Below, in pieces: positions 934 through 48,166 of a stretch of 48,166 bases of DNA (positions are counted from its first letter, which is position 1; each line of letters opens with the position of its first letter). Made by a program: the position numbers and the translations under genes. This stretch comes from a virus (Duplodnaviria; Heunggongvirae; Uroviricota; Caudoviricetes). Where the stretch lies: the IMG/VR virus record IMGVR_UViG_2639762987_000003; one strand, 5' to 3'. Under the pieces are notes generated by a model, which was not told where the DNA came from, did not search any database, and saw only the letters and a list, made by a program, of their open reading frames with translations.

Positions 934-1009
934 TGGTGGCCCCTACCGGATTTGAACCGATGACCGTGCGATTATGAGTCGCCTGCTCTAACCACTGAGC
1001 TAAGGGGCC
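934..1009 (-). tRNA. tRNA with CAU anticodon; acceptor, D and anticodon arms resemble E. coli tRNA-Ile2 (ileX-type), elongator tRNA-Met not excluded
   Basis: Reverse complement folds as a 76-nt cloverleaf: 7-bp acceptor stem GGCCCCT/AGGGGCC, D-arm GCTC-AGTGGTTA-GAGC, anticodon loop CTCATAA, T-arm ATCGG-TTCAAAT-CCGGT, terminal CCA encoded. Confidence 0.85.
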
Positions 1010-5680: not shown

Positions 5681-5704
5681 TTGTATAAATATATAATTCT
5701 ATAT

Positions 5705-6804: not shown

Positions 6805-6912
6805 CAGATTTCTCCGGTTTAACCAGGGCGGGTATCGCTCGGTTTCGGGTATAACCATAGGAAATTTTTTCCCACCTGTAAAGCACTTTTTATATAAATC
6901 TATAATTATATA
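6801..6912 (-). promoter_or_regulatory. Promoter-leader cassette copy A: TATAATTATA palindrome, -35 TTTACA, 17-bp spacer, -10 TATGGT, ~45-nt leader, GGAG, ATG
   Basis: Near-identical to 16776-16877 and 48055-48166; lies about 60 bp downstream of the Q-like gene. Confidence 0.6.
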
Positions 6913-6973
6913 TTTATAGATTTTCGATGTTCCCGATGTCTACACACCATCAAAACAGCTCAAAATGACACTT

Positions 6974-7354: not shown

Positions 7355-7687
7355 TCAGATCTCCCGTATCGTGACGGGATAAAGCGCCTCTACCTGCTTT
7401 TTCTTCATGATGTAGACGTCTGTTCGCACACCTTTAGTGTCGACACAATCAATCGTCCCATCGTCATAAAACACCATGAAATCAAGTTTATAAACGACAC
7501 CACCTGGCAGATGAAAAGGCACCTGCATAAGAAACGTCACAACGCGGCCAGCTTTTCTCAGTAGCTTCAGTTCGCAGTAGTAATCAGCCTCTTTTTTGCT
7601 ATCAAAAGCGATATCATCGACAACCGTTTTTTTATTGCCGTATTTGCTTTTCCTTGTCGCTGGTTTGCGAAAGCCGGTATATCTCAT
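7355..7687 (-). CDS. DUF1064-like phage protein
   Basis: Motif SKYGNKKT...FDSKKEADYYCELKLLRKAG typical of the DUF1064 phage family. Confidence 0.55.
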   Translation of the reverse strand: MRYTGFRKPATRKSKYGNKKTVVDDIAFDSKKEADYYCELKLLRKAGRVVTFLMQVPFHLPGGVVYKLDFMVFYDDGTIDCVDTKGVRTDVYIMKKKQVEALYPVTIREI

Positions 7688-8088
7688 TTGGTATCCCCTG
7701 GTACTTCACCAAGACTAAGATCAAACCCAATTTCGTCTTTAACTGACTGCGGCAACAGCTCCCACGTCTGCGCACACAAAAATTCATCTGTGCCATAACG
7801 CTCAACAAAGCGAGCACAATTACTCAGGGGAGGGTGACGAACGGCAATATGCGGAGGCACACGCCCACCACCAGGCACAACACCGCGATGATGTGGTGCG
7901 CACAACCCAAAGCTATGGAAGTGGCAATTCTCATCAACGCTGCCGTAATCAGGATCGTGATGTAGCTCCGTCCACAGCTCTGGATTCTCAATTTCACGGC
8001 CATCAATAATGCAAGCTATGCAACCCACGTGAGTGAGCACCGCTTGTATATAAAGTTTCTCTTTCTTCGTTGGTGTACGTCCGTTCAT
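7684..8088 (-). CDS. Putative zinc-binding/HNH-like nuclease-family protein (NinG- or Ref-like?)
   Basis: Cys/His-rich segment (HHDPDYGSVDENCHFHSFGLCAPHH); family assignment tentative. Confidence 0.3.
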   Translation of the reverse strand: MNGRTPTKKEKLYIQAVLTHVGCIACIIDGREIENPELWTELHHDPDYGSVDENCHFHSFGLCAPHHRGVVPGGGRVPPHIAVRHPPLSNCARFVERYGTDEFLCAQTWELLPQSVKDEIGFDLSLGEVPGDTK

Positions 8089-8321: not shown

Positions 8322-8833
8322 TGATGGCCCCCGTCATTTCTGGTGCTTTTCACCGTGCGGCTTCTTAAAAACCTGCCATCACGAACAACAGACACTTCTC
8401 GTTTACCCAACCTCATTTCACGGCGGTAACATTCAGAAAATGCCTCGTCCGGCATCATATAAATGCGACGCTTCGCCTCCGTATCCAGAAGGGAACGGCT
8501 TGGGGTTACATATAAGAACGACTCATCAATAGGGACAAAACCACGAGCAAGAATTGCTGGCAGAATACCAGGAAGAACGCAGAAAACAGCTCCACGATGC
8601 AGCAACATCTGGTACTCCATGACCTCCGTAATCCCCGTAACGACTGTTACGGTGTCACGTCTGTTACGGCTGGCAACCAGTCGCTGCACACCTCCAATTT
8701 TCTGCTCTACAGATAGACGTTTGCTATCGTTATCAATATGATCGATAACAAATCCTTTAATCGTTTGATCAAGGTAGTGCACCACCTGCGATTGAATCTG
8801 GTGATTATCACCAAAGAAGGCCAGAATCATCAT
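8318..8833 (-). CDS. Hypothetical protein
   Basis: 171-aa ORF, stop/start overlaps with neighbours. Confidence 0.45.
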   Translation of the reverse strand: MMILAFFGDNHQIQSQVVHYLDQTIKGFVIDHIDNDSKRLSVEQKIGGVQRLVASRNRRDTVTVVTGITEVMEYQMLLHRGAVFCVLPGILPAILARGFVPIDESFLYVTPSRSLLDTEAKRRIYMMPDEAFSECYRREMRLGKREVSVVRDGRFLRSRTVKSTRNDGGHQ

Positions 8834-9324
8834 TCCTCAAGCCTCCCAAGTGCTGAACGCCGGGCGTTGCTAATCTCCTTATGAATCAGCTCGATATCGC
8901 TGGAATCTTTATTCTTAAGCTCCAGCACGGTAATCGCATCACGAACCTCTGAAACGGTTACGTGTGAGTGTTTCCAGCGAGCAATGAATCGCGGACCGCG
9001 TAGATTGCAACGCTCCGCAGGCATCCCCAGCTCAGAGAAAACCGCTTTCAGCCTTGATAAGCAGTTAACAGGGAGATTCCCTTTGATCTTGTTCTGCCGA
9101 ACCGATGTGCCATCGCTACGCTGGCGCTGACGTTCGGCAAAATCTGCCGCCCATTGCTGGACGTTAATCCGGCCTTCCGAATACGCCACCAGCAGCGTCA
9201 GGTTATCCGCACGAGGGAATCTCTCGAAGCGATACCAGGCACCAATCAGTGATGACGTAAAGCAAAACTTTCTGGCAACACCAATTTGGCCTCCATTTTC
9301 GTCAACCCACTCCTGAAAGGTCAT
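8830..9324 (-). CDS. First gene of the operon divergent from the repressor; possible DNA-binding regulator
   Basis: 164-aa ORF transcribed divergently from the CI-like repressor across an operator-rich region. Confidence 0.4.
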   Translation of the reverse strand: MTFQEWVDENGGQIGVARKFCFTSSLIGAWYRFERFPRADNLTLLVAYSEGRINVQQWAADFAERQRQRSDGTSVRQNKIKGNLPVNCLSRLKAVFSELGMPAERCNLRGPRFIARWKHSHVTVSEVRDAITVLELKNKDSSDIELIHKEISNARRSALGRLEE

Positions 9325-9343
9325 TTAACGAACTCCAGTTAAA

Positions 9344-9461
9344 ACCACGATACGTGGTATTAAAACCACATATCGTGAGTTTTTCAATGGGCGAAACAAA
9401 AAATAACCTTCTATTTGTGGTCCACCTCTCGTCTTACCATGTGAAAACCACTAAATGTGGT
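9344..9461. promoter_or_regulatory. Operator cluster: ACCAC-N5-GTGGT palindromes at 9344-9358 and 9447-9461, imperfect site at 9365-9379
   Basis: Perfect inverted-repeat half-sites with 5-bp spacer in the divergent promoter region; the 9447 site abuts a TATAAA -10-like element before the repressor start. Confidence 0.65.
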
Positions 9462-9498
9462 AATGTATAAATAACCCACCATTCACGATTGATGAGAC

Positions 9499-10155
9499 AT
9501 GAAAAGCAACGACGAGAACATCAAGAAAGAAATAGGTCTGCGCATTCAGACTCTACGGAAACAATCCGGCATGACTGCCGGAGATCTCCAGCAAGTCACT
9601 GGAATAGGCTTAAGCACCTTGCAGAACTATGAGGCCGGATTAAGACAACCATCTATACCTGCCATCAAGAAAATCGCGCACGCCCTGAAAGCATCAGCGC
9701 CTTATATCGCGTGCTTAACAGATAACCCGTTCCCACCCCAGAATACTAACGCTCCTGTTATTCCTGGGCTTGTAGCTATAAAAAATGACATAGCATCGCA
9801 CGCCGGAGAAAAGCCAGTGCTGGCGATAGAACAGGAGATTCTACGAAGCAAGAACATCAACCCATCGTCTCTGTCAGTTCTCCAGAGCAACGATGAGTTA
9901 ATGTCACCAACAATATCCCCAGGCTCCCAAGTCCTGATTAATACAGACGATACAGAGATTCATGAGGGGATCTATGCCCTTGAAGACAGAAATGGCCTGG
10001 TTGTTTTGAGGCACTGTAGAGTCATACCGGGTGACAATGCTGTTATGCTGTCAACCGAAAGGGATGCTGAAATGAACACTAAGCATCTGAATAACGAGGA
10101 ATTTAAGCGTTATAAAGTTCTTGGCCGCGTAGTTAGTGTTGTCAACTGGTTATGA
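9499..10155 (+). CDS. CI-like repressor (N-terminal HTH, C-terminal LexA/S24-like fold)
   Basis: HTH segment (MTAGDLQQVTGIGLSTLQNYEAG) and C-terminal domain alignable by eye to lambda CI; the Ser of the S24 'SM' motif appears replaced (DELMSPT). Confidence 0.7.
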   Translation: MKSNDENIKKEIGLRIQTLRKQSGMTAGDLQQVTGIGLSTLQNYEAGLRQPSIPAIKKIAHALKASAPYIACLTDNPFPPQNTNAPVIPGLVAIKNDIASHAGEKPVLAIEQEILRSKNINPSSLSVLQSNDELMSPTISPGSQVLINTDDTEIHEGIYALEDRNGLVVLRHCRVIPGDNAVMLSTERDAEMNTKHLNNEEFKRYKVLGRVVSVVNWL

Positions 10156-10197
10156 TACACAGCACGGCGAAAGCCGTGCATTTCTACGCTCAAAAAA

Positions 10198-10212
10198 ACC
10201 ACATTTTGTGGT
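10198..10212. promoter_or_regulatory. ACCAC-N5-GTGGT operator site next to a TTGACA -35-like hexamer
   Basis: accacattttgtggt immediately upstream of TTGACA, before the 10248 gene. Confidence 0.55.
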
Positions 10213-10247
10213 TTTGACAACATGTAAAAGTATAAAAGAGGCTACGC

Positions 10248-10622
10248 ATGGAATTACATACAGCCAATAAAAACGAAACTCTGATCACTGCTGGAATCGA
10301 AATCCAAGCGTTGAACATAGCGATTGAGTGTATGTTATGCCAAATCATTGATAATGAGAAAGATATCGACTGGATAGAATCTATCCTTCATCTGGCATCA
10401 GAACAAAAAGTCTGCCTCAAAACGGCCTTACAATACGATGTGCCAGCGGTATCGAAGCTGTGCCAGCCATTGATGGCATATAACAGGGCTATTATTTCTG
10501 TATGCCTCATGATTCTTGATGAAACCCCCCCTCTTAGCGACCGCTCAGAAGCTGCTCTAACCCTCTCACGTAAACAGCGACAGCTAGCAAATCAACTGAT
10601 ATCAACGATAGCTGACCTCTGA
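10248..10622 (+). CDS. Hypothetical protein
   Basis: 124-aa ORF downstream of the repressor, followed by a terminator. Confidence 0.45.
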   Translation: MELHTANKNETLITAGIEIQALNIAIECMLCQIIDNEKDIDWIESILHLASEQKVCLKTALQYDVPAVSKLCQPLMAYNRAIISVCLMILDETPPLSDRSEAALTLSRKQRQLANQLISTIADL

Positions 10623-10650: not shown

Positions 10651-10750
10651 GATTATAGATTTATATAATTATATAAAACGCTTTTCATCAGCCAAAAAGT
10701 TGGTTATGCTTACCTCGTTCTATAAATATAGATTTATAGAATTATATAAC
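10651..10750. promoter_or_regulatory. Two AT-rich palindrome elements upstream of parA (perfect TATAATTATA at 10664-10673; variant TAGAATTATA at 10737-10746)
   Basis: Same motif family as at 23-32, 1159-1168, 6901-6910, 11429-11438 and 16866-16875. Confidence 0.55.
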
Positions 10751-11426: not shown

Positions 11427-11457
11427 TATATAATTATAGTTTTATAGATTTATATAA
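11421..11457. promoter_or_regulatory. AT-rich palindrome element (TATAATTATA at 11429-11438) between parA and the small downstream gene
   Basis: Motif family member followed by tatagatttatata. Confidence 0.5.
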
Positions 11458-11469
11458 GAGGGGATACAC

Positions 11470-11718
11470 ATGGCCGCACCATCAAAACCACCAAAGAAGA
11501 ACAGCAAAGGCGTACCGCCATCGATCGAACAACCGCAGGTTTTCGACCCGACTGAAACGCCAACCAGAACCAAATCAGGTGGGGCACAAATGGCGTTTAA
11601 CGTCGACCCTGAATTTAAACGCGAGTACAAAACGTTCGCCAGCTCAATGGATATGTCATTGAAAGAAGTGCTGACAAAGTCTTTTGAGTTACTCAAGGCT
11701 CAATACAACCAGAAGTAA
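11470..11718 (+). CDS. Small ParG-like (putative ribbon-helix-helix) partition partner
   Basis: 82-aa protein with a Pro/Lys-rich flexible N-terminus, directly after parA; fold assignment is inferred from size and position. Confidence 0.45.
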   Translation: MAAPSKPPKKNSKGVPPSIEQPQVFDPTETPTRTKSGGAQMAFNVDPEFKREYKTFASSMDMSLKEVLTKSFELLKAQYNQK

Positions 11719-11780
11719 GAGAAGGTGACGGCCTCCAGCGCCAACTGTTGGCCGTCGCGACACAACAAGGGGAATTTGTT

Positions 11781-11930
11781 ATGTCCGAGCAACAATATAC
11801 ACGGTTACTGAAAACTCGTCTAACCGACCTCAAACGGCTGCAAGCTGGCTGCTTATTTGCCCTGCTATCCACCAGGCCAGAATGGGTACGTGAAGCAGTT
11901 CTGAAAGGCTTAATGCGCTCCAGCGTTTAA
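11781..11930 (+). CDS. Hypothetical small protein
   Basis: ATG preceded by AAGGGGAA; 49 codons. Confidence 0.35.
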   Translation: MSEQQYTRLLKTRLTDLKRLQAGCLFALLSTRPEWVREAVLKGLMRSSV

Positions 11931-11937
11931 ATTCAGC

Positions 11938-11963
11938 CATAAAAAAAGGCCCCCGAAGGGGCC
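11938..11963 (-). terminator. Rho-independent terminator for minus-strand transcription
   Basis: Stem aggcccc/ggggcct with GAA loop, followed on the minus strand by 7 U. Confidence 0.65.
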
Positions 11964-11969
11964 TAATCG

Positions 11970-12092
11970 CTACTTGCTGCTAATGTTTATCGTCACATTC
12001 AGAGCGTTATCAGTAATCTTCCAACCCTCCCCATGTGGCGTAAACAAAGCCCCAGTAACAACGATAAAAATACACATACAGTATTTTTTCAT
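11970..12092 (-). CDS. Candidate 40-aa hydrophobic peptide (possible type I toxin or small secreted peptide)
   Basis: MKKYCMCIFIVVTGALFTPHGEGWKITDNALNVTINISSK; AAGGG 8-12 nt upstream of the ATG; own terminator downstream. Confidence 0.35.
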   Translation of the reverse strand: MKKYCMCIFIVVTGALFTPHGEGWKITDNALNVTINISSK

Positions 12093-12415
12093 TGTATGGC
12101 CCTTACAGGCCGTTTCACGGCATCCCCACCGACGAAAACAACGCGAGAGCAAGCACGGCTGCTTGTGCTTGCATGTACGGCAACGGAGAATCCTCCCCTA
12201 AAGTCGGTGCCCGGGTGCGAATCGGCGGGAAGGTCCACAGGTATTTTACGATTATTTTAAGATTAGTAATAGGAAAGAAATTAAACGAAAAAACTCGTTT
12301 ATTTTCACAAAATCAGTAACCTACCCACAATCTGTGAGTTTGCAGGCACAACAAGAACCACAATTTTTTGAAGCATAATAGTGGACTATTATTACCTTTT
12401 GGGTAAAATTAACTT

Positions 12416-12516
12416 GCTGCTTGTGCTTGCGTGGTTGTTTATACAACAACGTAATGCTGAAAGGACCGCGAATCCGATCAGCACGAAAGAACCGTCCTCA
12501 ATAGGGCGGTTTTTTT
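12416..12516 (+). ncRNA. Candidate ~100-nt sRNA, 5' 15-nt complementary to the leader of the 11970..12092 mRNA
   Basis: TAAAAT -10-like element at 12404-12409; 15-mer gctgcttgtgcttgc at 12416-12430 is identical to 12158-12172; two internal hairpins; terminator 12491-12516. Confidence 0.35.
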
Positions 12517-12535
12517 GTTTCTGCCTACCAATAAA

Positions 12536-12550
12536 CCCACGCTATGTGGT
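12536..12550. promoter_or_regulatory. Operator-like CCAC-N5-GTGG site upstream of the antirepressor leader
   Basis: cccacgctatgtggt, followed by TAAAAT (12560-12565) and TTGACA (12575-12580). Confidence 0.5.
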
Positions 12551-12585
12551 TGTCTCTGTTAAAATCCCGCCGTATTGACATGAAT

Positions 12586-12682
12586 GCGCCATTGGTGGAC
12601 ACTTTCCGAGCCGTAGCAAAATCTACGGTCGGGATTGGAACCCCGTGGACACAATGGCGCATACCGCGTTAGCGGTTTTTTT
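12586..12682 (+). ncRNA. Candidate structured regulatory RNA domain (P1 c4-like antisense RNA analogue)
   Basis: 9-bp closing stem gcgccattg/caatggcgc (12586-12594 with 12652-12660) encloses a hairpin and the element GAUUGGAACC; ends with a short hairpin plus 7 T. Confidence 0.35.
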
Positions 12683-12848
12683 ATGCGTAAAGCACTGCTA
12701 CACCCAAATTATGGTGGGGCGTGCGGGGGAGTCGTAAGACTCGCCGGTTCGTCATTGTGTCCGGTAGTTCCAACCCTGCACGTCTCACCACCCAATGATT
12801 GGAACCTGACGGTGGTGAGTATCCTTAACCTTTAAGGGAATCATCACA

Positions 12849-13040
12849 ATGACAAACCTACCCCATGACTATTACGTCAACCTCGTAAAGATCCTTCTCA
12901 AGAAAGCCTCATACGCCGATAAATTCCGCCTGGCTGAAATCATCGAGCGCGAAGCTATGCGCATCGCCAGCAACGATAACGCTGTTTCTGACGCAAAAAT
13001 CTCCCTCGTAACCAAAGTAGTTATGGGAGGTGCAAAATGA
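12849..13040 (+). CDS. Small protein upstream of and overlapping ant (icd-like position)
   Basis: 63-aa ORF with AAGGGA 9 nt upstream; its stop overlaps the ant start. Confidence 0.4.
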   Translation: MTNLPHDYYVNLVKILLKKASYADKFRLAEIIEREAMRIASNDNAVSDAKISLVTKVVMGGAK

Positions 13041-14179
13041 AAACGCTTCCGACCGTTAACACCCTACAGCCTATCCTGCATAACCAGATCCCCGTTATCA
13101 CTAGTGAACTTCTGGCGCAGTTATACGGAACAAAAATCAAAAACATTTCTGATAACTTTCTGAACAACACGACGCGATTCGTAGCCGGAAAGCATTACTT
13201 TAAAATTGAAAAAAACGAATTACGCGAGTTCAAGAACAGACCCGAAACAATCGGGTTAGTTGGTAAAAATGCCCGCTCCCTAATTCTCTGGACCGAACGC
13301 GGGGCTGCACGTCACGCTAAAATGCTCGAAACCGATCAGGCGTGGGATGTATTCGAACGGCTGGAAGACTGCTACTTCAACCAGAACGCGCAAACGGCCG
13401 CGACCGTAACCGTCTCGCCAAACAATGCTCGTGAGGTTGTCGATACGCTCAACGCCAAACCGATGTTTTACATTAAGGTGTGCAATAACGAGCCACTCAC
13501 AACCTCAGCCGATGTTGCCCAAGCATTCAGCACCACAAACAATTCCATCGTTATGGCCATCGATGCGTTACGCATTCCTCGCACAGCTGCGGCGCGTCAT
13601 TTCTTTAAAGAGCAACGACCGTTGGAAGGAAGCGACCGCGAAATAACAATCTATCGCATGACAAAAGACGGATTTACCTTGCTCATGGAGAGTATCGACG
13701 GTCCAGGCGTGAAAGATATCAAGCTGGCCTACATTGAAGCCTTTAACGCTATCAGCAGCGTGTTAAAAACACAGTACGAGCGTGATCTGGCTAAACGACT
13801 GTACCAGGAAAAAACGATTATCCGCGCGGCAACAGAGCATAATCGGCTATTAACGGAACCGAACTACAGGAAGGAACTAATAAAGGAGTTTGACAAGGCA
13901 ACAGGGAAAACCAAAGCGGCGCTAAATCTGCCAGCAATGACTCAGGAAAATGTGATATCAGCCTTACTTCTTGATCTGCTCAGAAACGCCAGAGCACTTA
14001 TCAGCTTTGACGAAAATCTGAACCCTCAGCTCAAACTACTACCACCGACAGGCAAAGTAGTCGACCAAGCTGATCACAACAGCATACTCAGCGTACTGGA
14101 TGCAAACCTGCCAGCCAGGACACTACAGGAACTGATAAAAATATCTGCGGATAAACTGGCCGCAGGTGCAAAACCATAA
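13037..14179 (+). CDS. Antirepressor (Ant-like)
   Basis: 380-aa protein whose N-terminal region resembles antirepressor N-terminal domains (ITSELLAQLYGTK...RFVAGKHYFKI...LWTERGAARHAKML). Confidence 0.7.
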   Translation: MKTLPTVNTLQPILHNQIPVITSELLAQLYGTKIKNISDNFLNNTTRFVAGKHYFKIEKNELREFKNRPETIGLVGKNARSLILWTERGAARHAKMLETDQAWDVFERLEDCYFNQNAQTAATVTVSPNNAREVVDTLNAKPMFYIKVCNNEPLTTSADVAQAFSTTNNSIVMAIDALRIPRTAAARHFFKEQRPLEGSDREITIYRMTKDGFTLLMESIDGPGVKDIKLAYIEAFNAISSVLKTQYERDLAKRLYQEKTIIRAATEHNRLLTEPNYRKELIKEFDKATGKTKAALNLPAMTQENVISALLLDLLRNARALISFDENLNPQLKLLPPTGKVVDQADHNSILSVLDANLPARTLQELIKISADKLAAGAKP

Positions 14180-16775: not shown

Positions 16776-16877
16776 TCTCCGGTTTAACCAGGGCGGGTAT
16801 CGCTCGGTTTCGGGTATAACCATAGGAAATTTTTTCCCACCTGTAAAGCACTTTTTATATAAATCTATAATTATATA
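16776..16877 (-). promoter_or_regulatory. Promoter-leader cassette copy B (identical to copy A over 102 bp)
   Basis: Same -35 TTTACA / -10 TATGGT / leader / GGAG as copy A; contains TATAATTATA at 16866-16875. Confidence 0.6.
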
Positions 16878-16889
16878 ATTCTATGAGCA

Positions 16890-16931: not shown

Positions 16932-17231
16932 TCAGATGTTAAACGCTATTCGTTTTCCTGTGGGAAGCTCAACATCCAGGCTTAATTTGCCTCCCATAGC
17001 TTCAACGTAACGCTTTAATGTCGCCAGCTTTAAATCATTTCCGCGCTGCTCCAGCTTTGTTACTGCTGGCTGGCTTATACCCATCGCCTCAGCAACCTGT
17101 TTTTGTGATAACTGGAGTTCTTCACGCATCATCTGCAAGCCGACCTCAAGAATCATCTCATCTGCCATTTCTTTAATTCGCGCCTGGCTTTCAGGTGAAC
17201 GGCTGGCAATCACCTCATCTAATGTTCTCAT
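16932..17231 (-). CDS. higA: HigA-like HTH antitoxin
   Basis: 99-aa HTH protein (LSQKQVAEAMGISQPAVTKLEQ) immediately downstream of the toxin gene, 1-nt overlap. Confidence 0.65.
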   Translation of the reverse strand: MRTLDEVIASRSPESQARIKEMADEMILEVGLQMMREELQLSQKQVAEAMGISQPAVTKLEQRGNDLKLATLKRYVEAMGGKLSLDVELPTGKRIAFNI

Positions 17232-17584
17232 TACTTGCTCTCCAGTGTGTTCAGATGTGCTGCAAACTCATCCTCAGCTATACGCACCAGTTTTTCATAA
17301 AACCGTTTATCGTTACTTTTGTCTCCTGCACAAAGAACGATGGCCCGGCGAATCGGATCGAACGCATAAAAGGCTCTGATCGGACGGCCAGAAAACTGAA
17401 CGCGAAGCTCTTTCATATTTTTGTACCGAGAACCTTTTACGGTATCGGCATATGGCCTGGGTAACTCAGGTCCGTAAACCTGTAGCTTTTTCAAATCAGC
17501 CAAAACCTTTTCCTGAAGAGCGTCTTCTTGCTCATTTAGCCAGTCGTCAAATCGCTGGCTAAAAAGTACCGTCCACATGCTCAA
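17231..17584 (-). CDS. higB: HigB/RelE-family toxin (Gp49-like addiction-module killer)
   Basis: 117-aa protein with segments typical of HigB-like toxins (PIRAFYAFDPIRRAIVLCAGDKSNDKRFYEKL); toxin-first gene order. Confidence 0.65.
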   Translation of the reverse strand: MSMWTVLFSQRFDDWLNEQEDALQEKVLADLKKLQVYGPELPRPYADTVKGSRYKNMKELRVQFSGRPIRAFYAFDPIRRAIVLCAGDKSNDKRFYEKLVRIAEDEFAAHLNTLESK

Positions 17585-19040: not shown

Positions 19041-19889
19041 TTAATGTTGGAGTGATTTCCAGGTCTTTCTTAACCTGTTATAACGCTGCTCAACGAGGGA
19101 TCGTAAATATGCAAGGTCAGCTCCAGGATACATGCCATCAGCAAATTCCTGGCTAACCTCTCTAGTGATTTGATGACGAAGTTCGGCCTCTCCCTTTTCC
19201 CGAACAAGACGCGCAGCTCTCTCCGCTGCTTTCTGTTTTGCCTTTATCTCTCTGGCCGTCTTCCTCTGATGCCATACATTCTCCATCTGCTCCTGAATAA
19301 CAATACGCTTATAATCAGCCTCCGTTATCGCTTTTTTAAGCCGTTCGCTATTCTTCGCATTGAAGTAATTAAGTTTCTGGCTAACCGCACGTCTCCATGC
19401 TTGTTCAGTAATACCAACGGTTTCCAGCAGTTGATCACGAATCTCTATTTTCGCTGGCCAATACTGTTTATTCACCCGATCCCAGCGACGTTCATAATCA
19501 ATAAAACCTAACGCTTTCAGTTGCGACAACGCCCTTGTACAGCGCGTTATAGACTTGTTCCCAGCTTCGGATACGGTAGACAGGCCGCAAAAATCAGCCA
19601 ACGCCTCAGCACTGGCCAGAACCCGCTTAGAAATGATGTTTACATGGTGCAAAATCGCAGCGATCACAGCATTAATCGCCCGACGACGATGCTCGTTTAT
19701 CCGGCGCTTCCGCTCTGACGGTTGATTAACGTAGAACGCAACCTCACACGTAAGATCACGCCCATTAATGCGCTGTAAAGCATCAGATAACACCAGCGGC
19801 AGCTTGTGCGTATGGTGCTTTGGAGGCTGGAACTCCGGCGACAAATTACAAACGTAAGCTGAACGTAGAGACGGCATTGGTCTATCCAT
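19041..19889 (-). CDS. repA: IncFII-type RepA1-like replication initiator
   Basis: Segment KSITRCTRALSQLKALGFIDYE matches the RepA1 core as recalled; start set at Met 44 of the track ORF to give about 282 aa. Confidence 0.75.
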   Translation of the reverse strand: MDRPMPSLRSAYVCNLSPEFQPPKHHTHKLPLVLSDALQRINGRDLTCEVAFYVNQPSERKRRINEHRRRAINAVIAAILHHVNIISKRVLASAEALADFCGLSTVSEAGNKSITRCTRALSQLKALGFIDYERRWDRVNKQYWPAKIEIRDQLLETVGITEQAWRRAVSQKLNYFNAKNSERLKKAITEADYKRIVIQEQMENVWHQRKTAREIKAKQKAAERAARLVREKGEAELRHQITREVSQEFADGMYPGADLAYLRSLVEQRYNRLRKTWKSLQH

Positions 19890-19899
19890 ATGTTCGCTC

Positions 19900-20010
19900 T
19901 TGCGTCCACGGAAAACCAACGTATAATGGGAGTTGTCGAGGCGCCCATGGTTAGTTGTTGGTTTTCCGTGGATGTCGCAAGAAGCCCGCAGATTTATCTG
20001 CGGGCTTTTT
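19900..20010 (+). ncRNA. Candidate CopA-like antisense RNA over the repA leader
   Basis: 15-bp inverted repeat (19906-19920 with 19957-19971) followed by a perfect rho-independent terminator (19983-20010), both on the strand opposite to repA. Confidence 0.35.
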
Positions 20011-20054
20011 GTTTCCATATCTGGTCACTTTCCAACCAGACACCCACAATCATA

Positions 20055-20069
20055 ACCACGTTACGTGGT
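20055..20069. promoter_or_regulatory. ACCAC-N5-GTGGT operator site upstream of the repA leader
   Basis: accacgttacgtggt; same palindrome family as the repressor operators. Confidence 0.55.
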
Positions 20070-20484
20070 TTTAAGAGAACTCTACCACAACACTTTCGGT
20101 CATGCACGAAGTCTCTCACTGATCGAACGATAATCCACCAGTAAAAGGATCTAAATTGGATCTCGTTTTGCGAGCATCATACTACTGGCCTAACTCCAGT
20201 CAATGATTCCCAGCCAGAAACCTGCGGTAAACTCATCGTTCAGCAATATGCTGTCCGGCTTCAAAGATAAGGTGACATCATCCCTTAACAGCGCGGCCAG
20301 TTCAGTTAAAGGGCTGTTCTGATTTAATGCTGGCCACTCATACCTGGTAATAAGTGGTCAGTCTTAACACTCACCATTTGATTGCACCCGTGTTGACGAT
20401 TTGTTACTGGATATCAGACACGCTGGATAGCCAGTAGAAACATACCATTAAAATTATTACAATAATTGGTCACATGATTATCTT

Positions 20485-21048
20485 ATGCTGAATAATAAAG
20501 ATATGAATATTAATGAACTTAAAGACTGTATTCACTATGAAGTAATCGGTAGCGAGCGTCCTTTCTCCTGGCGAAAGGCAATTGTTCGCGCAATAAAACA
20601 TAGAAGGGTTCGTTATTTATTTTGGTGGCGCATAGCCAAATACCTTTTTGATAAAGGCGGATACTGTCGGAAGATTGCGGGAAAAATAGAACGTTTCATT
20701 CTTGATAAATATAATGTAACAGTCCCTTTAACTGTAAATATAGGGAAAGGCTTTGATATTTCTTATCTCAACAGTGTTGTTATCGGTCACAAAGTAACAA
20801 TCGGTGAAAATTGTTCAATTAAGCCCGGAGTAACTATTGGACTTCGCGGGGAATTTAATGATATGGATATTGTTATAGGGCATAATGTGACCATTGGTTG
20901 TAATGCCACCATTCTTGGTGGCAAAGTGCGTATAGGAAACAATGTCACAATAGGTGCTCATGCATTGGTATTGCATGATATTCCTGATGATTCAACATTC
21001 ATCACTAAATTTCAGTCTGAAGTTATCTGCTCGTCCTCCCGAACATAA
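20485..21048 (+). CDS. Hexapeptide-repeat (left-handed beta-helix) acyl/acetyltransferase; candidate moron
   Basis: Repeated [LIV]-G-x-x-x-x hexapeptides ([22 protein letters not shown]...[32 protein letters not shown]); AT-rich segment; converges on the tail-fibre assembly gene. Confidence 0.7.
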
Positions 21049-21629: not shown

Positions 21630-24475
21630 TATGCAAGCCTCACAATATAATTAAATGCGATGTTTTTAACGGTGTTTTCCGCGTTACCAGCAGCGTTAAC
21701 GGTGATGGTGTGTCCATGTGAACCAATCTTAACAGAGTGCGTATGAGCGCCAATACCAACAGTGTGTGCATGTGCCCCAGCACTTGTAGCGGTACCTGAT
21801 ACTGAGTGGGTATGTGCGCCAGAAGAAGGCACAGTTCCATTCCCCACCACCGTGCCACTTGATGAACCATCCAGCCAGTCGAAATTCATACCGCCACTGT
21901 TTGGTCTCCTTAATGGAACGGTATGAGTATGTGCGCCAGCACTATTTGCAGTACCAGATACATTGTGGGTATGTGCACCTGTGTTATTCGTTGATTTAGT
22001 ACCGTAATCAAACGACGATGTGGTTTTCGTACCCAAATCCGTACTGGATGCGCTGGCACTGTGGGTGTGCGATTTAATGCCATCCTGTTCCTGAGACAAT
22101 ACGGCCCGACCACTGGCGGGTTTGCCCTTGATTGTCCAGCCGCGCATATCTGGAATAACACCAGAAGGATAGGCAATAGCCAGTTTCGGATATGCTGCCT
22201 TATCAAACGTCTGCCCCTGCATGATTGCATAACCTGCAGGTGGCGTATCTGATGGCCACGGCAGCGGAACACCTGGCGGAAACGCTTCAATATTTGCCGA
22301 GCCGTCAAATTTTACGCCGTTAATTGTCCTTGCCGTTTTCAGCTTTGTTGCTGTAGCAGCATTGCCGGATAGTTCGCCTGAAAGACCACCGCTGAATGTC
22401 TGTTTCGCCATCCATGTCTGAGCTTCGTCGATAATTGGCACACGTCTTGTCGTGATCGTGCGGCTTCCCGGATTTCCTGAAATGCGAACCATAAAAAAGC
22501 GGTAGTTGGCTTTACTTACAGTGCTGCGCCATACATGCATTGAGCGTCCCGAACCAGAATCATCACTCGGACCGACTGAGATGTTTATCAGGTTGCCATC
22601 AATGACGCCCCAGTCCATACCGTCGGGAATATTGGTCATGTTATCAAGCCGAACGGTTATCAGACTGCCCGGCACAAAATCGTAGGTCTGCCAGTCCAGG
22701 CTGGTGAGCTTTGCCACAGCACCGCCGATACCCAGATTCAGGGGAAGTGAATACGAGGTGTAGACTTCCCGCCATTCGCTCCATGAGCTGCCGGTAAAGA
22801 CGCGCTCAAAGGTGCGGCCTTTAAGGGTTGTACCTGTTCCGGCAGTTGTATAACGCTGCCATACATTAACACCATCAAACCGCCTCAACACTTCCAGAAT
22901 GCCGAGTACAGTCACGCCGTTTCCGTCCAGTACTGGACCGTTGGTCGCTTTACCTGTAACGCTGTAAATACCTGGTGAGGTTACATCATTCAAATCACCT
23001 TCGTAATAACGACTCTCTGACTGATGACCGACTCTTAACCACGGTTCCCACTGCGGATTTGATGCATCCCAGCTTGCCGCAAGACAGCGGACATACATAT
23101 TTCCACGGCGAGTGGTATAACGTTGCGTTCTTCCATAATTTCCGCCTTCGAGGATCTCAAGCATCCCCTGAGCAAAGCCGCCTTCCTCTGGATAATTGCG
23201 TTCATATGAAGCTATAGCTGAGCTACTGTTACGCCATAAACCAAGATGCTCGGCGGCTCCAAGCGTATTCAGGTCTATAGTCGTACTCAAAGGGCGGGTA
23301 GCAGATTGAGTGTGACGCCATACGCCCCACGGACCATCAGTGCCATTCCACTTATTGGCGAGTTTACGCATGTATACATTGCCGCCTCCCGTGGTAAAGC
23401 GTTGCGTACCTGCAAAATTGCCGGCAGCAAAAACCTCAAGCACACCGACAGCATTATCTTCCGGGAAATTTTTCTCCAGTGTTGCGTTGGTGGATGTTGC
23501 TTTAGACCAGATACCTGAATAAGCCTTAACAGGACCAAACGTATTCAGATCAGCATCAAGCGGCATTTCGCCATTGTTTTTCATAAACGTCAGGCTGGTA
23601 ACGCCAACATTGTCCAGAAAAGCTGATTTATCCTGGATATCTGCACCGTTCTGATTTTTCGCCAGACGTGAATTTGCGTTGTCATTTGCTGCCTTGACCG
23701 CTTTTGGCGTTGCCGCCTGCGTTTCAGACGTACTGTTAGTGGCACTACTGAGCTGAACTATCCCTTTTTGTGCCGTGGTGGCATTCTGGGCGGTATATTT
23801 TCCGTCAGCCAGGTCATATGCAGCCTTAACAGCCTTAGGCGTCGCTGCGAGCTTTTCAGACGTGCTATTGGTGGCATTACTGAGTTGAACAATGCCTTTT
23901 GATGTTAAAGTTGCATCAGGATGATTACGTGATTGCTCATGTTTTACAATAGCTTGCTTAAGCCGCTTTGCTGAAACAGCCAGGGAATCATCTGTACCTG
24001 CATCAATTTCTTGTTCATTAGCAAATCTTGCTACTCCAACAACAGTTTCGGTTGCGGGAGGGTTAATAAACTCAACATCACCAAATGTAATGTTTTTAGT
24101 ATCAAGATTTTTAATTGCTATATCACTTGATATTAAAGCAATTGTAGAAGATGCTTTATTTATTATTACTTGTTCTTGCGAGTATACAGCAAACAATGTT
24201 CCTTTATTTGTATACAAACCTATTGTATGGACAGCATACTCATCTTTACTATCATCCTTCGCAGTTACATGAATGGTATCAGGAGAAACGACTTTGCCTC
24301 CTATTGTGGTAAGTCGCTTTATTTCATCTGTTATTTTTGTTTGTGTGGTTGATGTGGCATAATATCTACTACCTAAACCAACAGAAACGATCTCAACTTT
24401 ATTTGTTCCAGTCTTGTTGGCATTAACCAGCGCCTTACGCCCGGCGTCAGTCATCGTAAATAATAATTTACTCAC
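21629..24475 (-). CDS. Tail fibre protein
   Basis: 948-aa protein with His-rich GAH(T/A)H(S/T)V repeats at the C-terminus. Confidence 0.8.
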
Positions 24476-24505
24476 GCTTAATTCCTTGGATTAACAAATC
24501 GCAAA

Positions 24506-25087
24506 TTAGCACTCACCAATTAATCGTACATAAGACACAGGCTGGAAAGCACCGACAATACCAACACCACCTGAAACATTGGTTGCTTGCGAAAATGTAA
24601 ATAGTGTTCTTGCCGACTTTGCACTCTTGATACTTCTTAACGTATCCTCCAACATCTCTTTCGAAGGAACAGCACCATCAAAAGAGTTAATCGAAGCAAC
24701 AATTGAGGCTGTATATGGTTCGCCAGGTGGTGATGTTTCAAACCATTCTGTTATGTTTACCTCTCCACCCAAGCTATTTACTACATCTTCAACCGCTGCC
24801 CTTGTACCCTTTATTCGCTTTGTTCGTATTATTGATTTAAAAACAGAACGCTTTAACAATACAGGCCAACTATCCCTCCATGTATCAGCATTCCATTGCC
24901 AAGCTAAATGATCGAGAACAACTGAGTCCAGGTTATCAACAACGCTATATATTTCTGTCTTATATATTAAATTGTTAATTGCTTGTAGTTCATCATCAAT
25001 AGCTTTCGACATAGCTATCACGTTGGGATCGCTAGCTAAGTTAGGAGGTAAAACATCCAACAAGCTAACATTAAAGATATCAGCCAT
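24506..25087 (-). CDS. Baseplate/tail protein, P2 gpI-like
   Basis: 193-aa protein in the gpI position after the gpJ-like gene. Confidence 0.6.
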   Translation of the reverse strand: MADIFNVSLLDVLPPNLASDPNVIAMSKAIDDELQAINNLIYKTEIYSVVDNLDSVVLDHLAWQWNADTWRDSWPVLLKRSVFKSIIRTKRIKGTRAAVEDVVNSLGGEVNITEWFETSPPGEPYTASIVASINSFDGAVPSKEMLEDTLRSIKSAKSARTLFTFSQATNVSGGVGIVGAFQPVSYVRLIGEC

Positions 25088-26204
25088 CCTCTAACCCCGC
25101 ATACTGGCAATTTATATTTCTCTCTCTGGCGACCTGTGTCTCTCCAATCACAGTAAAAACAGGACTTGATATTTCTAATCTTTTAGCCCCAGCATTTTTT
25201 AAACGTTGAATAATTTCATCTGGATTTATATCTCTTCCCATAACCGAACGTTGCCATTGTTTATACTCATCAATAGCTTTCTCAACCTCACTTTGAATTA
25301 AAGTTGTTCTGTTTTTGTCCGATGAGTTAATCCAGTATTTAATTATTATATCGTATTCAATGCTCTCTGGTTTCTTAACAAGAACTTTATCTGTGAATGG
25401 TCGAATATTAGTTGCAGAGAGAACGCTATTTATCTGCTCTAATAGTTCATTAGAAGGTATATCTCCGTTCTCTAACAAAGAACGGATTTCTACAATTCCG
25501 GGCGATGGTGTATATACATTCACATCTTTTATATTCTGATTGGCTGTTCTTGTCCAATATTTATAAGAATCCTCCGGCCCTGCTGTAGACAGTTTTTCCG
25601 GCGACAGTTTTATTCTTTCAGCATAATTATCATCTGACTCCGTATCAGCACCAGAATTAGATGTTGTTACATTCCTTACGCTGGAAACATACGGCAACGG
25701 AGTCACCAACTCATTTATTTGCCCTGGTAAAAAGCCATTCCCAGATAAACCAGGTATAACAGCATATCCTGAGACTGTACCAACTGTTTTCCCAGCAGGT
25801 ATTTCCAACAAAATATCTGTTTGGAAAATAACACCATTTCCAGTTGAAACTTGAGTGCCAGCAGGTATTGTATATATCCCCGATAATTTTGTTGACAGAT
25901 TAAACTCAAATGTAGTCAAGGCAGATTGAGCTTCCAGCCTAGGCGTATCCGTCAGATAGCCTATATGGTCGAGATATTCACCTTCACCATATGTAAGAAG
26001 GTTTTGTTTTGCAGAAAAATCGATAGCTTTTCTTTGCTGTATAATAATCTCACACAATGATAAGATGAATAATCTACGTGGATCAGCAGGTGCTAATGTT
26101 TCACCTGTTATACTCTCAAAAGCCCTGATTGAACGAGTTGTTATATCAGTCGGGTTAGAATCTGCGAAAGTAATATCTGGCAAACCACCACGCGGCAACG
26201 TCAT
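25080..26204 (-). CDS. Baseplate protein, gpJ-like
   Basis: 374-aa protein in the W-J-I order typical of P2/Mu-like baseplates. Confidence 0.65.
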   Translation of the reverse strand: MTLPRGGLPDITFADSNPTDITTRSIRAFESITGETLAPADPRRLFILSLCEIIIQQRKAIDFSAKQNLLTYGEGEYLDHIGYLTDTPRLEAQSALTTFEFNLSTKLSGIYTIPAGTQVSTGNGVIFQTDILLEIPAGKTVGTVSGYAVIPGLSGNGFLPGQINELVTPLPYVSSVRNVTTSNSGADTESDDNYAERIKLSPEKLSTAGPEDSYKYWTRTANQNIKDVNVYTPSPGIVEIRSLLENGDIPSNELLEQINSVLSATNIRPFTDKVLVKKPESIEYDIIIKYWINSSDKNRTTLIQSEVEKAIDEYKQWQRSVMGRDINPDEIIQRLKNAGAKRLEISSPVFTVIGETQVARERNINCQYAGLEDG

Positions 26205-34336: not shown

Positions 34337-34822
34337 TTAGATAAACTCCTGAGACTGAATATTCTGAGGCTTTAATACTAGCCACGTTCCAGTTGCTTCC
34401 GTTATCCAATATGGATATGGTTGATCATCAAACATTCGCCATCTGATATCACCCTGAAAGAGAAATTTCTCTTCAAGTAAAGGCTTCTCCTGAAAATGAA
34501 ACATCATCCTTTCAAGAAGAGCCATTACCCATTCATACCCAGTATGGTCCTCACAAAAACCACCTAGAAGAAACTTAACCTTAACTTCATCCGTTTCAGG
34601 CTGCATTCCTCCTTCCGTGGGTCTGATAATCACATGAGGAAATTCTGGCGGTTTATCTGGAGATGGTTGTGATTTAGGAGGCAAGTACCCTTTAAATATT
34701 GTTGGAACAAACAATTTAATATCGCTGTCTGTTTCATCATAAGGAGGCCCCTGCACTAATAAATCATGGAAAACCTCATGTTCCAACCGATTTTTTATTG
34801 CATCTATCAAAAGATTAATCAA
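34337..34822 (-). CDS. Putative tail completion/neck protein
   Basis: 161-aa ORF between head and tail modules. Confidence 0.4.
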   Translation of the reverse strand: MINLLIDAIKNRLEHEVFHDLLVQGPPYDETDSDIKLFVPTIFKGYLPPKSQPSPDKPPEFPHVIIRPTEGGMQPETDEVKVKFLLGGFCEDHTGYEWVMALLERMMFHFQEKPLLEEKFLFQGDIRWRMFDDQPYPYWITEATGTWLVLKPQNIQSQEFI

Positions 34823-35163
34823 ATCGGCATTCCTCTGTTAGTATTAACAGTGAGAGTTATTTCCAATACACCAACATTATCTGATACTTCATCAACAATA
34901 TAACTTTTACCGTTGATTTTCATTGACTGGTCTTTGACAGGGAGAACAGGAAAATCTTTTCTTGAAACAAATAATATTATTTGCCCCTGATTTATTCCCT
35001 CTGCAAACTCAGCATATGAGCGTTTATTACGCTCATGAATAAGGTCTGTATCAATAACGGCAAGGATATCCTTGCCGTCTATGTTATATGTATCGGCAAA
35101 CTCTTTTTCATTGAGGAATATTGCAGAAATATCTTGCGCTATAACCTCTTTGAAGGAGTTCAT
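34819..35163 (-). CDS. Putative head-tail connector/head completion protein
   Basis: 114-aa ORF following the capsid block. Confidence 0.4.
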   Translation of the reverse strand: MNSFKEVIAQDISAIFLNEKEFADTYNIDGKDILAVIDTDLIHERNKRSYAEFAEGINQGQIILFVSRKDFPVLPVKDQSMKINGKSYIVDEVSDNVGVLEITLTVNTNRGMPI

Positions 35164-48058: not shown

Positions 48059-48166
48059 CAGATTTCTCCGGTTTAACCAGGGCGGGTATCGCTCGGTTTC
48101 GGGTATAACCATAGGAAATTTTTTCCCACCTGTAAAGCACTTTTTATATAAATATATAATTATATA
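48055..48166 (-). promoter_or_regulatory. Promoter-leader cassette copy C (continues across the circular join into positions 1-34)
   Basis: Same -35 TTTACA (48136-48131) / -10 TATGGT (48113-48108) / leader / GGAG as copies A and B; one mismatch in the AT-rich end; TATAATTATA at 48155-48164. Confidence 0.6.

Follow-up and report, generated by a model that had tools for sequence, protein, structure and literature searches.

A CI-like repressor lacking the S24 catalytic dyad in an Escherichia coli phage-plasmid, and a c4-gated antirepressor as its candidate inactivator

What switches off the repressor of a phage-plasmid when that repressor appears unable to cleave itself? The question is raised by the gene at 9499-10155 of IMG/VR virus record IMGVR_UViG_2639762987_000003, an open reading frame (ORF) for a CI-like protein that we infer to be the primary immunity repressor. 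The window, by which we mean the whole 48,166-nucleotide stretch of DNA that was analyzed, has redundant ends (bases 1-34 are the same as bases 48133-48166, an assembly overlap) and thus represents a complete circular replicon of 48,132 bp. It encodes phage head, tail, and lysis genes together with an IncFII RepA and a ParA, and this 48-kb E. coli element is therefore a phage-plasmid. As a whole, our results are best explained by a primary repressor with a dead S24 domain that would be inactivated in trans, with the antirepressor Ant as the candidate inactivator, a reading to which we assign a probability of roughly 0.7. The repressor gene comprises the following features:

9499-10155, plus strand: immunity repressor gene, CI-like, two domains (ORF, 218 amino acids; PHROG_4; 12 orthologues)
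9544-9705, plus strand: HTH_3 helix-turn-helix (HTH) DNA-binding domain, residues 16-69 (Pfam PF01381, E 4.5e-11; predicted local distance difference test [pLDDT] score >90)
9766-9828, plus strand: shortened linker/cleavage-loop region, residues 90-110 (Ala102-Gly103 not conserved)
9820-10152, plus strand: predicted S24-fold C-terminal domain without catalytic residues, residues 108-218
9898-9900, plus strand: codon TTA, Leu134, where S24 peptidases have the Ser nucleophile (by alignments; invariant in 12 orthologues)
10009-10011, plus strand: codon AGG, Arg171, where S24 peptidases have the general-base Lys (by alignments; invariant in 12 orthologues)

The protein combines a Cro/C1-type HTH domain, almost invariant among orthologues, with a full-length match to a repressor profile, as found in two-domain CI-like phage repressors. 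A large family of CI-type repressors, PHROG_4 ("transcriptional repressor"), covers residues 4-217 (E 9.6e-27); residues 110-214 are also matched by phrog_6201 ("CI-like repressor"; E 2.9e-9). The Pfam Peptidase_S24 profile (PF00717) matches residues 113-212 below its gathering score (18.4 bits versus 23.3; E 0.0018), and for all 13 family members the precomputed Pfam annotation contains no family other than HTH ones. Close homologues are few, comprising 12 full-length orthologues with 60 to 67% identity from Citrobacter, Klebsiella, Yokenella, Salmonella, and metagenomes. The protein is 100% identical to an annotated coding sequence in E. coli plasmid p142_C and in the Yersinia phages vB_YpM_39, 41, and 44, and its NCBI label is merely that of a helix-turn-helix or XRE regulator.

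We placed the active-site positions with two alignments. A HMMER profile of the C-terminal domain retrieved 558 relatives (E ≤ 0.001) from 1.84 billion cluster representatives, and the best 150 were aligned. Here the query residues D132-E133-L134-M135-S-P-T fall on the S24 signature G-D-S-M-x-P-T, with Leu134 in a Ser column that holds Ser in 120 of 163 aligned rows. The register at the Lys column is uncertain by one residue (L170 or R171), with relatives aligning as "KR" or "xKR"; the query reads L170-R171-H172 at this site and contains no Lys in residues 157-186. A separate MAFFT alignment of 148 full-length proteins, with counts taken over 136 nonfamily rows, set L134 opposite Ser in 110 rows, R171 opposite Lys in 106, and H172 opposite Arg in 118, which settles the Lys register at R171. 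When E. coli LexA, lambda CI, and UmuD were added, L134 aligned with LexA S119 and lambda S149, and R171 with LexA K156 and lambda K192 (LexA was checked against PDB entry 1jhc, S119A, and lambda CI against 8gmu, K192A). The UmuD counterparts are presumably S60 and K97, respectively. All 12 orthologues share L134, R171, H172, C173, and R174 without exception.

The protein therefore has neither a Ser nucleophile in a G-[DN]-S-M motif nor a general-base Lys. An initial annotation, made by eye, had read the Ser of the SM motif as replaced (DELMSPT against lambda GNSMTAP) and the position of the catalytic Lys as Arg or His; both readings are borne out, and profile alignment to the S24 peptidases restores no Ser/Lys dyad. 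A sequence search for solved structures with the C-terminal domain (phmmer against PDB) gave no match, and a profile of the 12 orthologues matched HTH domains in PDB and nothing else. A hhalign comparison of the small family profile with a 6-sequence S24 alignment returned a probability of 1.8% in a register off by one and was judged unreliable.

Structure prediction is consistent with a domain that has kept its fold. AlphaFold2 modeled the C-terminal domain with a pLDDT of <50 when given the 12-orthologue alignment and of 92.6 when given the 148-sequence alignment, and the highest Foldseek ranks for the predicted fold went to a lambda-186 hybrid repressor, LexA, and 186 CI. In this model the C-terminal domain has the β-rich S24 fold. 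R171 lies midway along strand 168-176 and L134 in the loop that follows strand 125-129, the places expected for the Lys and the Ser. The C-terminal domain, as modeled, is a pseudo-peptidase with the LexA/lambda CI/UmuD fold. Ratios of nonsynonymous to synonymous substitution rates (dN/dS) between the window and two orthologues, which are approximate because dS is saturated, were 0.11 to 0.21 for the C-terminal domain and 0.04 to 0.07 for the HTH domain, and the linker is fast-evolving. Purifying selection acts on the C-terminal domain. The dead domain is probably kept for dimerization or oligomerization, by analogy with lambda and 186 CI, and it perhaps serves as a docking surface too.

The cleavage loop points in the same direction. 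Between the anchor columns (query residues 90-110), this segment measures 20 to 21 amino acids in the repressor family. Its median length is 31 residues in relatives that keep both Ser and Lys, 72 of 100 of which have Ala-Gly there, versus 21 residues in relatives lacking both, where Ala-Gly is found in 5 of 20. Ala102-Gly103 of the repressor is present in about 4 of the 12 orthologues, so that the family has no conserved Ala-Gly or Cys-Gly scissile bond in the loop that precedes the catalytic core. Relatives that have lost Ser tend strongly to have lost Lys as well (Fisher P = 5e-13; among 149 nonfamily relatives, 110 have both, 22 have neither, and 10 and 7 are mixed), and about one in seven of the 150 nearest cluster representatives is without both. 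Loss of the scissile loop has thus accompanied loss of Ser and Lys. The initial annotation had also proposed that induction would not proceed by RecA-stimulated autocleavage, and at the sequence level this is supported: with Ser replaced by Leu, Lys by Arg, and the Ala-Gly loop shortened, such self-cleavage is very unlikely. The nearest nonfamily relatives without both residues (P0016 and P0019) lie in loci with an early operon, a divergent repressor, a small ORF, ParA, and an 81-amino-acid ORF, and in one of the two an ORF6N protein follows this conserved gene order. Because the gene order is the same, loss of the catalytic dyad appears to be old within the phage-plasmid lineage.

What the repressor would control is suggested by a repeated palindrome. 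The pattern ACCAC-N5-GTGGT occurs 8 times with one mismatch allowed, versus 0.59 expected, and six intergenic sites fit the extended 19-bp palindrome AAACCAC-N5-GTGGTTT. These sites and the adjoining operon are as follows:

9342-9360, unstranded: operator-like palindrome AAACCAC-N5-GTGGTAT, adjoining the start of the leftward early operon
9363-9381, unstranded: second operator-like site, 2 mismatches
9445-9463, unstranded: third operator-like site, upstream of the repressor gene
10196-10214, unstranded: perfect predicted operator AAACCAC-ATTTT-GTGGTTT, downstream of the repressor gene and before the ORF124-parA operon
12534-12552, unstranded: operator-like site, 2 mismatches; the isrK-like/c4 transcript has its 5' end 76 bp downstream
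20053-20071, unstranded: operator-like site upstream of IncFII repA (19041-20018, minus strand)
8830-9324, minus strand: opening gene of the divergent early (lytic) operon, 164 amino acids (phrog_7452; syntenic in all relatives)

Citrobacter and Klebsiella relatives have predicted operators at the same positions, in which the half-sites are conserved and the 5-bp spacers differ, a pattern typical of a protein-binding site; the near-invariant HTH domain fits a shared operator specificity. We compared related elements that we denote by number, namely, p142_C (L001), a Citrobacter relative (L002), L003, an element of Klebsiella aerogenes (L004), L005, L006, and the more distant L007 and L008. L002, L003, and L004 each have a counterpart of the site at 9342-9360 in the same position, the spacer varying, the site at 12534-12552 has the same spacing to the transcript in L002, and the site before repA has a counterpart upstream of repA in L002. 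The repressor gene is divergent from the early operon with three predicted operators between them (9342-9463), the arrangement expected of a CI-like repressor, and the leftward operon holds genes for the Ref nuclease, DUF1064, and DUF3560 before continuing to the lysis genes.

Several observations on these neighborhoods can be added. The Ref gene (7684-8088, minus strand) encodes a homologue of P1 Ref, a RecA-dependent nuclease; the gene is annotated as Ref family in p142_C and as PF16786 in relatives. Directly after the perfect operator, between the repressor gene and parA, lies a gene for a conserved 124-amino-acid protein (ORF124; 10248-10622, plus strand; phrog_7632), and a small ORF of 88 to 126 amino acids occupies this position in every relative examined, distant ones included. 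Given the operator-like site before repA, the repressor may also control plasmid replication.

The antirepressor named by the initial annotation at 13037-14179 is confirmed by its ORF6N and Phage_pRha domains and its PHROG anti-repressor matches, and it belongs to an immI-type cassette:

12610-12682, plus strand: isrK-like leader RNA (Rfam RF01394, 65.8 bits, above the gathering score)
12707-12795, plus strand: c4 antisense RNA (Rfam RF01695, 77.8 bits versus a gathering score of 45)
12849-13040, plus strand: 63-codon leader ORF at the place that icd holds in P1, with its start codon within a c4 target
13037-14179, plus strand: Ant-type antirepressor, 380 amino acids (ORF6N and Phage_pRha by Pfam, with a conserved C-terminal region; PHROG anti-repressor)

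In P1 and P7 immI, c4 blocks translation of icd, and expression of ant is coupled to icd translation. The cassette shares the elements of this arrangement, with c4 on the same strand upstream of ant, complementarity to the leader start, and overlap of leader and ant. The second c4 hairpin has a loop, GTCATTGTG, complementary to CACAATGAC across the ATG at 12849 (a 9-nucleotide match), and a single-stranded stretch of c4, GTTCCAA, has its complement in TTGGAAC at 12799 (a 7-nucleotide match). The isrK-like element carries upstream copies of these targets (TTGGAAC at 12635 and GGACACAATG at 12647), and a c4 RNA is found in L002 as well. The leader stop codon (13038-13040) overlaps the ant start codon at 13037 as ATGA, an arrangement shared by L001, L002, and L005, and this overlap suggests that the leader is translationally coupled to ant. 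The leader ORF is 90 to 98% conserved in the same three elements, and its PHROG match is to phrog_7886 alone (function unknown). Ant itself matches several PHROG anti-repressor families (best E 1.4e-66), and over residues 6-116 it shares 88% identity with the Stx2a-phage Ant to which it was compared; between elements, the pRha domain and the C-terminal region are conserved and the N-terminal domain varies. We note that RefSeq gives the ant homologue of p142_C (24235-25434) as a 238-amino-acid "Rha family regulator" beginning at an internal codon, when the ORF really has 399 amino acids from an ATG overlapping the leader-ORF stop.

We hypothesize that the HTH domain binds AAACCAC-N5-GTGGTTT at the three sites of the divergent region and at single sites before ORF124-parA, immI, and IncFII repA, and that the repressor, as a pseudo-peptidase, would not cleave itself on activated RecA. 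Derepression would then require a factor acting in trans. The best candidate inactivator encoded by the element would be Ant, whose synthesis may be gated as in P1 immI, with c4 pairing with the start region of the leader ORF and translation of ant coupled to the leader. Ant is a plausible inactivator but appears to be an accessory one. The initial annotation had gone further in proposing that induction proceeds through the antirepressor. The part of that claim that stands is the presence of an Ant-type gene; as a route of induction it is weakened by the c4 gate, by the missing LexA box, and by absence of the cassette from the syntenic position in 2 of 5 relatives.

These and several other points weigh against our preferred reading. 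No near-consensus LexA box was found in 11700-13040, near ant, and a search of the complete element gave no convincing intergenic box, so that a connection to the SOS response is not apparent. The sole CTGT-N8-ACAG core in the element (34835-34850, CTGTTAGTATTAACAG) lies at the junction of ORFs 34337-34822 and 34819-35163, inside a late structural gene, and is probably a chance match; LexA control of ant was rejected on this ground. By analogy with P1 and N15, c4 is expected to silence Ant in lysogens and not to sense DNA damage. Of five related elements that encode repressors of this dyad-less family, L001, L002, and L005 carry the c4-leader-ant cassette. In L004 (10212-10899) the syntenic position lacks it, and ryfA too, and in L006 (10226-11780) all that remains is an unrelated pRha fragment, even though L005 and L006 have an identical repressor. 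Relatives without ant are represented by K. aerogenes DAGIYJ010000036 and by contig JAUDQP010000062.1 of assembly GCA_046031095.1. Ant therefore cannot be the universal inactivator of this repressor family. As for the repressor, its active-site residues are placed by alignments and a predicted fold, so the geometry of the site is that of a model; the operators are assigned from position and conservation; and the operator-like site near immI is centered about 67 bp upstream of the presumed transcript start, off the promoter.

An alternative is that the repressor answers to a different inactivator or signal, such as a small Coi-, Tum-, or AntC-like protein encoded elsewhere, a loss of plasmid copy number, or repressor instability, with c4-gated Ant serving only in anti-immunity during infection or superinfection, as in P1 and N15. 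The absence of the cassette from two of the five elements, the expected silencing of ant by c4 in lysogens, and the lack of a LexA box at ant all favor such a factor. A precedent is N15, in which the SOS antirepressor AntC is separate from the immA antirepressor locus controlled by a small processed RNA (PMC4488713). However, no second antirepressor-like gene emerged among the ORFs scanned against PHROG (including those at 15-19 kb), which is weak evidence given the many small ORFs without an assigned function, and the element-wide lack of a convincing intergenic LexA box tells against this alternative as well. We regard it as unlikely, though a serious contender. Continued proteolysis of the repressor, either through an alternative nucleophile or base or in trans by a host S24 protein, Lon, ClpXP, or an ImmA-like metalloprotease, seems to us highly improbable. 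The S24 fold is intact in the model, this protein has a vestigial Ala102-Gly103 at about the expected place of the scissile bond, and an invariant His172-Cys173 pair occupies the former Lys site, but to cast that pair as substitute catalytic residues would be speculation. No invariant Ser or Lys lies at or beside the active-site positions, no Lys is invariant anywhere in the C-terminal domain across the 12 orthologues, the loop is about 10 residues shorter with its Ala-Gly kept in so few orthologues, and a COG2856/ImmA-like gene was not seen beside the repressor gene or among the neighbors scanned. As substitute catalytic residues we also considered S136, which adjoins M135 and was rejected as not conserved (Ala in 10 of the 12 orthologues), and T138, rejected as part of the ordinary M-x-P-T motif.

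It is also conceivable, if improbable, that the protein is mainly a plasmid-maintenance regulator of the ORF124-parA-parG-like operon and of repA rather than a lysis-lysogeny switch. Operator-like sites precede both ORF124-parA and repA, and the order of repressor, small ORF, ParA, and an ORF of about 81 to 82 amino acids is kept in the distant dyad-less L007 and L008. Three predicted operators nevertheless face the early operon that leads on to the lysis genes, and the match to the CI-repressor PHROG is full length. The two roles are not mutually exclusive. We tentatively offer a further reading, which we think rather doubtful in its entirety. It holds that the repressors form an old, separate dyad-less S24-fold lineage on one backbone (repressor, small ORF, ParA, and ParG-like protein), that the dead domain would receive a non-SOS input from c4-gated Ant or another factor, and that the repressor, by way of its dispersed operators, would act as a single plasmid/phage switch over lytic genes, partition, and the IncFII replicon alike. 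Our preferred reading remains that of a primary repressor with a dead S24 domain that would be inactivated in trans, possibly by Ant.

The repressor locus is widely carried. A 2.7-kb stretch around the gene is 100% identical to E. coli plasmid p142_C, 99% identical to three Yersinia pestis phages, vB_YpM_39, 41, and 44, and matched with 95% identity or more by at least 58 sequenced plasmids. Nearly all of these plasmids are from E. coli (57 from Escherichia, including E. albertii, and 1 from Klebsiella), and all are typed as nonmobilizable. Many carriers of this ∼47- to 49-kb phage-plasmid come from human clinical samples, and it has been isolated as free Yersinia phages too. Literature searches found no paper on Yersinia phage vB_YpM_39, and the pSLy3 group proved to be SSU5-like and different from the present element. 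If the repressor cannot sense RecA directly, induction of the element by DNA-damaging antibiotics, and hence its spread, is not predictable from the lambda model. Labels such as "HTH + S24-like" or "XRE family regulator" are silent on catalysis, and annotation alone can therefore mislead on inducibility.

Other features of the element were noted in passing. A full-length homologue of the ryfA RNA (11942-12238, minus strand; 141.8 bits) overlaps ORF 11970-12152 (minus strand), which contains a short hydrophobic internal reading frame (MKKYCMCIFIVVTGALF...). ryfA encodes a small toxic peptide (TimP-like), and the locus may therefore be a type I toxin-antitoxin or addiction module. An AT-rich 15-mer, TATAAATATATAATT, occurs with its variants 21 times versus 0.26 expected, in intergenic clusters (15-40, 1146-1168, 5684-5698, 6893-6918, 10651-10738, 11432-11446, and 16858-16883) that include both sides of parA. 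It might serve as a centromere-like repeat or in promoters, or might bind a regulator. The element also has a tRNA gene with anticodon CAU (937-1009, minus strand; 67 bits) and, at 16932-17584 (minus strand), a Gp49 (DUF891) gene followed by an HTH_3/HTH_37 gene, conserved in relatives and of a pairing typical of HigB/HigA-like toxin-antitoxin modules. A hexapeptide-repeat (acetyltransferase-like) gene adjoining repA (20485-21048, plus strand) is probably accessory cargo.

Among known immunity systems, P1 and P7 offer the closest parallel to the cassette. As in their immI, the RNA belongs to the c4 family, two c4 segments are complementary to the leader start with decoy copies upstream, a short leader ORF is probably coupled to ant, and the host replicon is a plasmid prophage with dispersed predicted operators. 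Ant here is a mosaic of ORF6N and pRha with an N-terminal domain resembling that of Stx-phage Ant. The P1 C1 repressor belongs to a family unrelated to that of the element's repressor, and the RNA-gated Ant of P1 and of N15 has an anti-immunity role and is not an SOS sensor. N15 is likewise a phage-plasmid with a CI-like primary repressor, CB, and a separate RNA-controlled antirepressor locus. Unlike the present element, however, N15 is linear and has its inducing antirepressor in the SOS regulon; no LexA-controlled gene was found in the element.

The principle of a noncleavable CI-like repressor inactivated by an antirepressor is already established, for 186, N15, and Gifsy phages (PMC3121763), and E. 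coli DicA is a similar noncleavable type (PMC10448788). The element shares with the 186, N15, and Gifsy systems the absence of autocleavage determinants but not a LexA box before the antirepressor. Lambda CI, P22 C2, LexA, and UmuD, in contrast, are catalytic S24 peptidases, whereas here we find Leu134, Arg171, a shortened loop, and a subthreshold Pfam S24 match. The closest analogue of the repressor is coliphage 186 CI, which has a noncleaved C-terminal domain of the same (here predicted) fold but only ∼13 to 15% sequence identity, and whose inactivator Tum is a small LexA-controlled protein rather than a large c4-gated Ant without a LexA box. The Gifsy repressors GfoR and GtgR and DicA have about 135 amino acids and no C-terminal domain, whereas the repressor of this phage-plasmid keeps what appears to be a full, dead S24-fold domain.
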